Virus record (IMG/VR): IMGVR_UViG_3300021977_000001
From: a virus
Reading direction: 5' to 3' (one strand)
Length of the DNA stretch: 64,000 nucleotides
This document shows, piece by piece, positions 869 to 61,535 of the stretch. The translations under genes and the position numbers were made by a program. Under the pieces are notes generated by a model, which ran no database searches, was not told the DNA's origin, and worked only from the letters and a program-made list of their open reading frames with translations. Numbering within the stretch: position 1 is the first letter of the stretch; every line of letters begins with the position of its first letter.

Positions 869-1576
869 CTATTGGTCCTCACTGCTTATTAATAAATTAC
901 GCAACGTAATGATGTCATCTAGACATCGGTTAAGTGGGTCGGCGGGGAAGTGTATAGCATCTTTCTCATCGTCATGATCTAAAAGCTCTTTAGCCGAATT
1001 AGCATGATCGATAAAAAGATCCAACATGGCCTCGGCAGCATCTAGCTTATCTTCAATGCTATTAGTTTCCTCTAACAATCTTTGAAGATAGCCACCGTAT
1101 TGATCCAAATTAACCACCCAGTAAACAATACCTGTACGAATATCTTGCTGTTTATTTACCTCCAGGTAATTAAACGCTGTTTCGCCCCGATATAGCTCAT
1201 GTCTGTCGCGGTTTCTTTTCTTATCGATATCTATCACTACATCAAAATGGTTGCGACGTGTAGGTTTAAGACCTACTTTGTCAAATACACCCATGATAAC
1301 ATCAATTAACCGCATGTAAGTGTTATAGAACAACTTATAGCGTTTAAAGGTAACGTAGTGTAGTTCTTTATTCACATAAGACTTAACTGCCTTATCTACC
1401 TCACCATAGACACGTGTCGATTGGTTAGGATTTTCTACTGCTTCGGTGAAGCATTGATCGCGTTGATTAGTTAAAATACCTCTTATGGATATTGCGCACT
1501 GCTTCCTTTCGTTTAAACGCTCGATCAACGCACCGATATTAGCTTTAGTGTAGCTAATGGTGAGTAATCGTCTCAT
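869..1576 (-). CDS. hypothetical protein
   Basis: 235-aa ORF with an AGGA-like RBS, in a co-directional gene run. Confidence 0.7.
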   Translation of the reverse strand: MRRLLTISYTKANIGALIERLNERKQCAISIRGILTNQRDQCFTEAVENPNQSTRVYGEVDKAVKSYVNKELHYVTFKRYKLFYNTYMRLIDVIMGVFDKVGLKPTRRNHFDVVIDIDKKRNRDRHELYRGETAFNYLEVNKQQDIRTGIVYWVVNLDQYGGYLQRLLEETNSIEDKLDAAEAMLDLFIDHANSAKELLDHDDEKDAIHFPADPLNRCLDDIITLRNLLISSEDQ

Positions 1577-1603
1577 ACCAGTGTCCTATGATGTTAACGC
1601 TCC

Positions 1604-2214: not shown

Positions 2215-2856
2215 CTATTTACTTACATTATCAGAATAGTAGGTTAGTGCGTCAGCACACTGCATGTTATAAGGTATTTGGAAACTAACTTGATGCGTCC
2301 CACCTTTCCACGTATTGACACGTGGTCCTACTTCTTCATTAAACGTTATCTCTGCACGATAGATACGCCAGGAGATAAACCGCGCCCATCGTAAACATAA
2401 CGGCGCTACACGAATATAATACGTACGCACATGACATTGTACCATGTTCAAATTAGCTTGATCGTGGTATTTCATGTTATTTACTTGCTTTAACGTCACC
2501 TCGGTATAAGGTTCTAAGCAGCGTATCTGCCAAGGCATATCATACCCGCGATACCCTTTACGTCCAAGGTAGAATGACACAGAATCCGCATGAAAGAATA
2601 CCCCATACCAGATATCTTCCTCATTATTATCCAATGCTTCAACGCACCATCTTGCACTAAGTTTAATGGTGATGTTAATCAGGTATAAGAATAACGTAAC
2701 ACTATTATCGCCCTCACCGTAGCTAAGGTTTTGCTTGGTGGTTCGACTTAAAAGGAAATGGATACTCCTATCTACCTTAGGAATATTCCACTTTACCGAC
2801 AACATGCCTAAGCTAAACACACCGCTGGCTTTTAGTCGTTTTAATGCAGCTAACAT
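2215..2856 (-). CDS. hypothetical protein
   Basis: 213-aa ORF followed by a terminator. Confidence 0.6.
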   Translation of the reverse strand: MLAALKRLKASGVFSLGMLSVKWNIPKVDRSIHFLLSRTTKQNLSYGEGDNSVTLFLYLINITIKLSARWCVEALDNNEEDIWYGVFFHADSVSFYLGRKGYRGYDMPWQIRCLEPYTEVTLKQVNNMKYHDQANLNMVQCHVRTYYIRVAPLCLRWARFISWRIYRAEITFNEEVGPRVNTWKGGTHQVSFQIPYNMQCADALTYYSDNVSK

Positions 2857-2924
2857 AATACACGTCCTGTTATTGAAGTTAAAAAAAGAAGGTCATAATA
2901 AACCTTCTTTATGTTAATACTGAC

Positions 2925-3338
2925 TTACTTTGTAAGATCCAAGCCCAGGTTACGCACTAGGCGTATGCCTTTAGACGTCATCCCGTAGGCCATAAAACGC
3001 CCATGGCGTTCTTTATCTAAATAACCTAGGTTAACCAGCTTGTTTAGCATGCGTGCTATGGCGGAGTAACTCCAACGATTACCCCCGCGTCTATAATAGC
3101 TCATAAAGAAACCTTCTACCTCACCTACATACACTAGCGGGTATTTGCCACTATGGTTACTATTGACAATGGATAACGCCAGCATAGCAGGAAGACTTAA
3201 GTTAGACAGCCTAAGTTTTACCATGATCTCTAACGGGCTTAGTTGGACATCATGTTTGTCTTTAAATAGCTGAATAACTTCAGCACTTTGCTGTTGGACT
3301 TCTTCGCGTTGAGGTTTAGTCTTTATTGTTTTCATCAT
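2925..3338 (-). CDS. winged helix-turn-helix protein (MarR/PadR-like)
   Basis: WSYSAIARMLNKLVNLGYLDKERHGRFMAYGMTSKG = recognition helix, wing and LTxKG motif. Confidence 0.65.
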   Translation of the reverse strand: MMKTIKTKPQREEVQQQSAEVIQLFKDKHDVQLSPLEIMVKLRLSNLSLPAMLALSIVNSNHSGKYPLVYVGEVEGFFMSYYRRGGNRWSYSAIARMLNKLVNLGYLDKERHGRFMAYGMTSKGIRLVRNLGLDLTK

Positions 3339-5430: not shown

Positions 5431-5855
5431 GCGTTATCTCCATTTACCATCCCCACACATTCTAGCTTAAGCATGATGCTAAACGGGTCGATGCCAGTCT
5501 CAAATTTAGTATGCTTAGGTGGAGCGTGTATATCCATGTGGTCTACCCAGTCCTGATAGTCCTTTAACGCGCTCTGTACAAGCATGTTAAGTTCTTTATC
5601 AATGACGGCTATCTCATCAGACATAGCGGTAATGGCGCGCTCTGCATGCCAGGCAGCGCCTTCTACAGATGGTTTCTCTTCAAACCTTAAGCTAGTAAGG
5701 TACTGTGTTATACCTGAACGTAGGTTATCGGTACCAACAAACTCACATTTCATTTCTTGCGTGATAGCGTGACCTGGAACGTCAACATCAAAATAAACAT
5801 TGTGTCCCATAACTTTAATTAGTATTTGAAAAACTGGCGTTGTCATTAATAGCAT
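5424..5855 (-). CDS. hypothetical protein
   Basis: 143-aa ORF overlapping the dcd start. Confidence 0.6.
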   Translation of the reverse strand: MLLMTTPVFQILIKVMGHNVYFDVDVPGHAITQEMKCEFVGTDNLRSGITQYLTSLRFEEKPSVEGAAWHAERAITAMSDEIAVIDKELNMLVQSALKDYQDWVDHMDIHAPPKHTKFETGIDPFSIMLKLECVGMVNGDNAC

Positions 5856-5912
5856 CCTTTAATAATAGATCTTTGGGCTTGTAGGATTAATGATCTATGT
5901 AAATAAAGAAAG

Positions 5913-5947
5913 ACGGCATAAGGGATGCAAGGTTACCCCCACATCCC
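5913..5947 (-). terminator. hairpin + TTATGCCGT terminator
   Basis: GGGATG-TGGGG-GTAA-CCTTG-CATCCC (G-U pairs) followed by TTATGCCGT. Confidence 0.6.
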
Positions 5948-5952
5948 AATAG

Positions 5953-6153
5953 TTAACTTAATCCTACAGTAAGGTCAAAGAACTCGTCTTTAGCCGACAC
6001 TATTACCTGGTCACCATCTACAGTATACCCGTTAAATAGCTGATTCTCTACCATCAATAATACTTTAACGCTTGAAAACTTACGTACTTGTTTTCCATCC
6101 TTGCTTTTTACTATTGCGGGTAGATCGTTGTAATTCTCAATACCTTCAAACAT
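5953..6153 (-). CDS. small hypothetical protein
   Basis: 66-aa ORF with AAGGA RBS, followed by a terminator. Confidence 0.6.
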   Translation of the reverse strand: MFEGIENYNDLPAIVKSKDGKQVRKFSSVKVLLMVENQLFNGYTVDGDQVIVSAKDEFFDLTVGLS

Positions 6154-6179
6154 AGAGGATTCCTTACACTATTTATAAA

Positions 6180-7996: not shown

Positions 7997-8206
7997 TTAT
8001 TCACTGGCCGTTATACTCTCTGCAATGGTTGAGAACAATACCCCCGCTTTACGTTTTGCTTGAATATTGTATTTGAACGTATCGCCTTTAATAGATAGTT
8101 CAGCAGTGTAGTCATAATGACCTGCCTCTATTAAATCAGCAAGGCTGCGTAACCGAGCAACAACGTCAAGCTCATCGTCGGTTACATTAATGGTTGAATC
8201 GGTCAT
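7997..8206 (-). CDS. small hypothetical protein
   Basis: 69-aa ORF in the co-directional run. Confidence 0.55.
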   Translation of the reverse strand: MTDSTINVTDDELDVVARLRSLADLIEAGHYDYTAELSIKGDTFKYNIQAKRKAGVLFSTIAESITASE

Positions 8207-10801: not shown

Positions 10802-11353
10802 TTAGGTACTACTTGGTTTTTTAGTAACTGTAAAATCTATCCTATCTGACATCGCCTTCATGTCTTTAAATGGACTAGTGGGTTGAGGAAAGATATCAAA
10901 GTTATCTTCTACGGTGTGATGAAGTTTATTTAACACAACCCCAAACGTCTTTTCATTAATTGTAACAATTAACGATATAAAGAACGCTACTGACGATAAT
11001 AAATACACACCACCTGTAGAATTTATAGAAACAACACAGTGACCATTGACGGCAGCAGTACGATAAAGCCGATTAAATAATCTAATAAGCTTTGATGTAA
11101 AAAACATCCGTCCCAACTTATAGTCTATCTCATCATGCTGTACAAGTAGGCTTTCTATAAATACGGTTTTAGAGGTAGAGTTTTCTAACTCTTCAATTAA
11201 TTCAACATATTCATCTATGTTCCTTAACGGTTCACGTATGGTCATGTCAAATGCATTTAATTCACTTTCTAACTTTTCAGTATGTGAAGGTGTCGATATC
11301 GCCTCAACAATAACACCCTTTAGCAGGCATAGTTTTTTAATATCTTCTTTCAT
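10802..11353 (-). CDS. hypothetical protein
   Basis: Start moved to MKEDIKK (11353, AAGGA RBS) because the listed start lies in the upstream terminator motif. Confidence 0.65.
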   Translation of the reverse strand: MKEDIKKLCLLKGVIVEAISTPSHTEKLESELNAFDMTIREPLRNIDEYVELIEELENSTSKTVFIESLLVQHDEIDYKLGRMFFTSKLIRLFNRLYRTAAVNGHCVVSINSTGGVYLLSSVAFFISLIVTINEKTFGVVLNKLHHTVEDNFDIFPQPTSPFKDMKAMSDRIDFTVTKKPSST

Positions 11354-11368
11354 GTGTAAATCCTTAGA

Positions 11369-11397
11369 GGGCATAAAGCGAGAACCCGAAGGTTCTC
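11369..11397 (-). terminator. UUCG hairpin + TTTATGCCC terminator
   Basis: GAGAACC-TTCG-GGTTCTC then GCTTTATGCCC, directly after stop 11406. Confidence 0.7.
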
Positions 11398-11405
11398 TGC
11401 TCTAT

Positions 11406-11555
11406 TTATATCTTACAGGCCCCGCCTTCACAGTCGTCAACATCACCTTCCGTTAAAGCTTTTGCTTCTTCGTTCTGCTCTGCCATACGCTCTGCGTTAG
11501 CGCGTTCTAGGGCCTCTTCATCGATGTTTAAATCGAAATCATCAAAATCACTCAC
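11406..11555 (-). CDS. 49-aa acidic microprotein ending in an RNR-alpha-like redox tail (DDCEGGACKI)
   Basis: Absent from the ORF track. GTG start with AAGGAG 7 nt upstream; MSDFDDFDLNIDEEALERANAERMAEQNEEAKALTEGDVDDCEGGACKI; own promoter motif and terminator. Confidence 0.8.
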   Translation of the reverse strand: MSDFDDFDLNIDEEALERANAERMAEQNEEAKALTEGDVDDCEGGACKI

Positions 11556-11571
11556 GTGATTGCTCCTTTAT

Positions 11572-11581
11572 GTAATATAGG
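11572..11581 (-). promoter_or_regulatory. early promoter motif (CCTATATTAC)
   Basis: TATATTAC match just upstream of the RBS of the 49-aa ORF. Confidence 0.6.
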
Positions 11582-32162: not shown

Positions 32163-32172
32163 GTAATATAGG
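32163..32172 (-). promoter_or_regulatory. early promoter motif (CCTATATTAC)
   Basis: Exact TATATTAC, intergenic. Confidence 0.55.
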
Positions 32173-33679: not shown

Positions 33680-33689
33680 GTAATGTAGG
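33680..33689 (-). promoter_or_regulatory. early promoter motif variant (CCTACATTAC)
   Basis: One mismatch to TATATTAC, upstream of 33125..33640. Confidence 0.45.
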
Positions 33690-61525: not shown

Positions 61526-61535
61526 GTAATATAGG
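61526..61535 (-). promoter_or_regulatory. early promoter motif (CCTATATTAC)
   Basis: Exact TATATTAC, intergenic. Confidence 0.55.

Follow-up and report, generated by a model that had tools for sequence, protein, structure and literature searches.

A conserved 49-residue phage peptide copying the C-terminal tails of both subunits of class Ia ribonucleotide reductase

In class Ia ribonucleotide reductase (RNR), the large subunit alpha (NrdA) ends in a mobile tail (about the last 25 residues of E. coli NrdA, with Cys754 and Cys759) that re-reduces the active-site disulfide after each turnover and is then recharged by thioredoxin (Trx) or glutaredoxin (Grx), while the small subunit beta (NrdB) is tethered to its cleft on alpha by its own C-terminus (PMC11903788). 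The E. coli NrdB 20-mer has been co-crystallised with R1 (PDB 1R1R/2R1R), and NrdB/R2 C-terminal peptides, synthetic versions of which are used as RNR inhibitors, bind the large subunit competitively (PMC3483043). Cysteine pairs separated from the catalytic barrel occur in the split class II enzyme NrdJa/NrdJb of P. aeruginosa, in which the partner RNR is encoded alongside. In Facklamia ignava a folded Grx domain is fused to full-length NrdB, a published precedent showing that tethering a reductant to the complex works (PMC6187632), and cryo-EM indicates that catalysis and re-reduction occupy opposite halves of alpha2beta2 (PMC11903788). The yeast proteins Sml1, Spd1 and Hug1 are small, largely disordered RNR regulators that act as inhibitors without copied tails or a redox Cys pair; Sml1 interferes with tail-mediated regeneration. 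Full-text searches for the motifs described below, for phage proteins acting on NrdA and for tail mimics found no description of a protein of the present type, in agreement with the statement in an earlier note that no stand-alone RNR-tail gene was known.

The locus analysed here lies in a 64,000-nucleotide stretch of the IMG/VR virus record IMGVR_UViG_3300021977_000001 (hereafter the window), from a marine phage of roughly 190 kb. The earlier note, made from the sequence alone, had reported a free-standing 49-aa gene with a GTG start, an AAGGAG ribosome-binding site (RBS), an early promoter and a UUCG terminator, forming its own transcription unit and ending in an NrdA-like tail, with no RNR gene in the window. 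The gene it described was confirmed as real, and its statement that E. coli NrdA ends DDGCESGACKI was also correct (PDB chains 5r1r and others). Its functional interpretation was supported only in part, as set out below. The features are collected in Table 1.

Table 1. Positions of the peptide gene, its parts and related features (window coordinates unless another record is named)
Feature	Coordinates	Strand	Remarks
CDS of the acidic peptide, stop codon included	11406..11555	-	49 aa, GTG start; ends DVDDCEGGACKI
Residues 3-9, copy of the NrdB alpha-docking tail	11529..11549	-	DFDDFDL
Residues 13-39, acidic linker	11439..11519	-	Predicted single helix, low confidence
Residues 40-49, copy of the NrdA CxxxxC redox tail	11409..11438	-	DDCEGGACKI
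Ribosome-binding site	11564..11569	-	AAGGAG, 8 nt upstream of the GTG
phiKZ-type promoter-like motif	11572..11581	-	CCTATATTAC; core TATATTAC at 11572-11579
Stem-loop right after the stop codon, candidate terminator or RNA-stability element	11373..11405	-	Inner stem 11380-11397, UUCG loop; dG -19.6 kcal/mol, z -3.4
Start region of the downstream 190-aa ORF	11351-11374		Listed start ATG at 11374, inside the 3' arm of the hairpin; probable start ATG at 11353
Further exact or near-exact CCTATATTAC motifs	32163-32172, 61526-61535, 33680-33689		Immediately upstream of minus-strand genes
gp49-like protein (PF13876), Klebsiella phage Pylas (locus L013)	1193-1585		130 aa; ends in the NrdA-tail decapeptide
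Larger phage protein (locus L009)	2429-3220		263 aa; ends in the NrdA-tail decapeptide
Larger phage protein (locus L010)	5787-6158		123 aa, unknown fold; ends in the NrdA-tail decapeptide
Stand-alone homologue, Rheinheimera chromosome (locus L161)	8001-8153		Further bacterial loci: L170-L199

Neighbouring proteins indicated a phiKZ-like jumbo phage, the 478-aa upstream gene being about 26-30% identical to virion proteins of PhiPA3, phiKZ-type and Xanthomonas jumbo phages. A megablast of the locus against phages returned nothing, but eight related IMG/VR loci (L134-L141) carried the orthologue with conserved synteny (virion gene, peptide, two orphan genes), with GTG or ATG as start at the same codon, a conserved RBS and a promoter-like motif kept as CCTA[TC]ATTAC. 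The downstream hairpin was conserved in structure while its sequence differed, locus L136 having a GCAA loop on a different stem and locus L137 another stem again. The hairpin lacks a U-tract, so that 'terminator' remains an inference. Compared with the nearest record (locus L135), 11 synonymous and no non-synonymous differences were found, and dN/dS against L137 was 0.02; in the nearest record, the 189-kb G001, the peptide is identical apart from how the start codon is read. Against the most distant relative (L136) the peptide was 75% identical, while the adjacent virion protein was 46% identical. The possibilities of a chance ORF and of an untranslated one, the latter named in advance by the earlier note as a refuting outcome, were thus contradicted by strong purifying selection, although transcription and translation were not observed directly. 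TATATTAC is the published predicted promoter motif of phiKZ (PMC7058600, Table 2), and CCTATATTAC matches predicted promoters of phiKZ, 201phi2-1 and EL, the EL version, CCTACATTAT, resembling the variant seen here. The three exact CCTATATTAC copies in the window all lie in intergenic DNA just upstream of minus-strand genes, while the total motif count was not above chance; the further copies in Table 1 are candidate phiKZ-type promoters that define other transcription units. For the downstream 190-aa ORF, the second ATG follows an AAGGA site and orthologue similarity begins at residue 8, which makes the later start more probable than the listed one.

The C-terminal motif was examined by a degenerate DNA scan for DCEGGACKI-stop in one genome per bacterial species, which returned at least 120 loci. 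In nearly all of the 120 loci inspected the motif ends an NrdA of about 760-800 aa (the same decapeptide or octapeptide in about 110), in Yersinia, Serratia, Proteus, Providencia, Xenorhabdus, Photorhabdus, Pseudoalteromonas, Shewanella, Colwellia, Psychrosphaera and Oleispira; the last 10 residues of the peptide thus equal the NrdA tails of many Gammaproteobacteria (Enterobacterales and Alteromonadales), including the CxxxxC spacing and the position at the extreme C-terminus. In Psychrosphaera algicola (L019) and Providencia stuartii NCTC11800 (L102) the tail sits in a short open frame (23 and 37 aa, respectively), suggesting a frameshift or assembly error in nrdA rather than a free-standing peptide, and short tail-bearing ORFs in contigs binned outside the Gammaproteobacteria (a Neisseria MAG contig, L047; a 778-bp Terrabacter contig, L021; a Flavobacterium MAG, L062) may be phage or prophage DNA, or mis-binned contigs. 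The best PDB match of the peptide was the tail of the L. leichmannii class II reductase (RTPR). Compared with the tail of E. coli NrdA, the last 8-10 residues are identical or nearly so, but the phage tail is not attached to an RNR catalytic domain, is encoded as its own gene, and is accompanied by an extra N-terminal motif.

That N-terminal motif, which the earlier note had missed, became apparent when NrdB C-termini were read from the same bacterial loci. NrdB of Pseudocolwellia sp. AS88 and of a Psychrobium MAG ends in the exact heptapeptide found at residues 3-9, and relative L136 has DFDDFEL, identical to the NrdB end of Shewanella canadensis. Out of 100,000 composition-preserving shuffles of residues 2-39, none gave a 7/7 match to any of 22 distinct NrdB ends (the best was 6/7, in 215 shuffles), and a PSSM test gave 0/2000. 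The stretch aligns with the E. coli NrdB C-terminus, the peptide seen bound to R1 in crystals (PDB 1r1r_D and others), and matches the hydrophobic pattern of its tail DDLSNFQL (phi-x-x-F-x-L among acidic residues). In contrast to a genuine NrdB tail, the copy is followed by further residues, the chain leaves the motif in the opposite topological sense, and it lacks the free C-terminal carboxylate that contributes to binding in the yeast and mammalian systems (PMC3483043). The Psychrobium MAG carries both exact motifs, on its own NrdB and NrdA, from which a marine Alteromonadales-type host is inferred. AlphaFold2 (alignment A2) predicted a helix at residues 13-39 with low confidence (mean pLDDT 59.6) and both ends unstructured, so that the peptide consists of a beta-tail copy, a spacer of about 27 residues and an alpha-tail copy, and is small and mostly disordered, as are the Sml1-type regulators. 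No sequence relationship to the latter is known, and none turned up in Pfam, PHROGs or NCBIfam searches.

The family proved widespread, which the earlier note had not recognised. A profile search of 1.84 billion representatives found 9 small proteins (44-60 aa) at E<=0.001, and a word-indexed search with a broader alignment found 129 clusters at E<=0.01, all of 42-108 aa and all annotated as hypothetical apart from one UniRef label; a 'longer' word-indexed homologue search found nothing. Pfam, PHROGs and NCBIfam gave no named family, only weak end-matches to small PHROGs of unknown function, such as phrog_14561. Named carriers were Chaseviridae (E. coli and Yersinia Carltongylesvirus), Siatvirus (Klebsiella/Serratia, about 300 kb), Erwinia phage pEa_SNUABM_14 (264 kb), Pectobacterium phage Wc4-1 (Ounavirinae), Vibrio phage 275E43-1 (Zobellviridae) and Enterobacter phage Entb_48. 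The same tail decapeptide also ends the larger phage proteins of Table 1 and is therefore a portable module; an atlas search of the 263-aa fused protein gave no usable fold. A PSSM built from NrdB ends detected a significant beta-tail-like motif in three rows of this lineage and in four others (two Siatvirus-type peptides, the Erwinia phage and Entb_48), but not in the Chaseviridae or Vibrio phage 275E43-1 peptides or in the fused proteins, and about two thirds of the family members tested showed no statistically detectable motif. An alignment nevertheless showed a shared N-terminal D-phi-D-x-F-x-L-like consensus. Double mimicry is therefore solid for this lineage and several others, and is not shown for the whole family.

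Several readings unrelated to RNR were considered and found unlikely. One bacterial homologue (P0090, from Alishewanella tabrizica) is named 'FxLD family lantipeptide' in UniRef, but no NCBIfam lanthipeptide model matched it or the window peptide even at E<=10, no modifying enzymes lie nearby (neighbours being virion and orphan genes in the phage, and housekeeping genes in Rheinheimera), and the putative core holds no Ser and only one Thr, so that the label looks like a misannotation. The N-terminus loosely resembles the acidic SSB tail, but an SSB-tail mimic would share only DFDD, whereas the NrdB match is 7/7. A DNA mimic or generic acidic peptide would fit the net charge of about -13, but only the two end motifs, exact copies of the two RNR tails, are conserved, while the rest of the peptide varies.

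The earlier note had proposed, as its first option, a split RNR in which a tail-less phage NrdA elsewhere is served in trans by the peptide, and had named the state of the tail of the phage's own NrdA as the point to examine. No match to PF02867, PF00268 or PF13597 was found in G001 or in the two direct-terminal-repeat (DTR) genomes of close relatives (G010, 194,866 bp; G011, 190,650 bp, with a peptide about 90% identical to that of the window), and none in any of 20 carrier records, 13 of which are complete or DTR genomes. NrdB, NrdD, glutaredoxin and thioredoxin families were also absent from this lineage, and no RNR gene was found in the window. The full genome of the window's phage was not inspected, but given the size of the DTR relatives the 189-kb nearest record is probably near-complete. 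Out of seven phiKZ-like relatives without the peptide, four encode NrdA, each with its own covalent CxxxxC tail; the contrast (0 of about 11 lineages versus 4 of 7 relatives) is only suggestive statistically. Although detached tails next to RNR genes exist in other systems, such as NrdJa/NrdJb, the split-RNR reading is therefore considered refuted, or at best very unlikely, and the partner must be a host protein. The two other options of the earlier note, a booster or competitor of host NrdA and a Trx/Grx decoy, survive. The alpha-tail copy alone could act on NrdA, Trx or Grx, but with the added beta-tail copy direct action on NrdA is now favoured, because NrdA is the only known partner of the NrdB tail.

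The decoy reading, in which the tail engages host Trx/Grx as a pseudo-substrate and diverts or titrates reducing power without touching NrdA, possibly to disable Trx-dependent processes or competing phages, has in its favour that the tail is identical to the natural Trx/Grx substrate and that some family members and the fused proteins show no detectable beta-tail motif. It is nonetheless unlikely, since it does not explain the exact NrdB-tail copy in this lineage and several others, and since a catalytic reductase is not easily titrated by a small dithiol substrate that it simply turns over.

The family is cellular as well as viral, which also escaped the earlier note. About 37 of 401 sampled genomes of the Pseudocolwellia family group carry a stand-alone homologue, and in Rheinheimera the gene sits among housekeeping genes, not in a prophage and not near nrdAB. 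An NrdR-type box was sought by eye upstream of the bacterial homologues, and only a conserved TGCTACACT, read as an extended -10 promoter, was found. All 25 genomes checked keep a full-length NrdA ending in its tail; in the 24 for which the peptide and both tails were read, NrdA ends CAGGACKI and NrdB, which is normal, ends DFGDFDL, while the peptide begins DFDFDL-like and ends C[SA]GGACKI. The peptide is thus not simply a detached tail replacing a missing one; a 'spare tail' looks redundant in these bacteria, where a regulatory role is equally plausible.

The main rival reading is that the peptide is an RNR inhibitor, the beta-tail copy competing with NrdB for its groove and the alpha-tail copy adding avidity or blocking the active-site entrance, which would shut down host dNTP synthesis as a prokaryotic and viral analogue of Sml1-type inhibitors. 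Coexistence of the bacterial homologues with tailed NrdA fits a regulator better than a spare part, the motif is an exact NrdB-tail copy, and a peptide occupying the beta-tail groove is classically a competitive inhibitor, so docking could lower RNR activity rather than raise it. Against this, carriers are RNR-less phages, including genomes of 190-320 kb whose DNA demand is inferred to exceed what the host chromosome could supply, and which would be starved by a block of host RNR. In addition, a pure inhibitor would not need the redox Cys pair, the conservation of which had been named beforehand as a test and which is strictly conserved, and would be expected to place the beta motif at the C-terminus; the putative extended -10 promoter in the Rheinheimera group, if constitutive, would be odd for an inhibitor unless the protein is controlled after translation. 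Inhibition is therefore possible but was judged the less likely sign of the effect.

The explanation favoured, with moderate confidence, is that the peptide is a double short-motif mimic aimed at the class Ia RNR of the host. In this view the peptide docks early in infection on host NrdA through its beta-tail copy, which raises the local concentration of its cysteine pair, and this pair then serves as an extra, tethered re-reduction arm that is itself recharged by host Trx/Grx. As in the Grx-NrdB fusion, a reductant would be kept at the RNR complex by physical linkage, but here a 49-aa peptide carries only the two linear motifs. What the analysis itself demonstrates is that the gene is real and under strong purifying selection, that both motifs are exact copies of host-type tails and that carrier phages lack RNR, whereas binding to NrdA, the redox chemistry and the sign of the effect are inferred. 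Binding to the NrdA groove, electron transfer from Trx/Grx to the active-site disulfide, and competition with tail-mediated regeneration were not assayed, and a complex prediction of Pseudocolwellia NrdA (residues 1-738) with the peptide alignment, a type of modelling that the earlier note had suggested, gave a score of 0.01 and was used neither for nor against the proposal. A boosting role is preferred over inhibition because RNR-less jumbo phages depend on host RNR, but the internal position of the beta motif and the bacterial homologues beside tailed NrdA keep inhibition or regulation possible.

A broader and more tentative reading is that phages and some bacteria encode a previously undescribed class of RNR accessory microprotein, built from copies of both mobile tails of the enzyme, which docks on NrdA as a tethered, exchangeable re-reduction arm and is used by RNR-less phages to raise the output of the host enzyme instead of carrying their own reductase. 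RNR sets the supply of DNA precursors, and its two flexible tails are the parts that couple radical delivery to re-reduction, so that a natural 49-residue protein made of copies of both would be a new way of controlling this enzyme. It would provide a natural peptide probe, or an inhibitor scaffold, for bacterial class Ia RNR, and it links to recent findings that defence systems sense phage-driven dNTP changes (DRT4 preprint). For the phages it would also be a cheap alternative to carrying an RNR, and could explain how large RNR-less phages obtain enough dNTPs.
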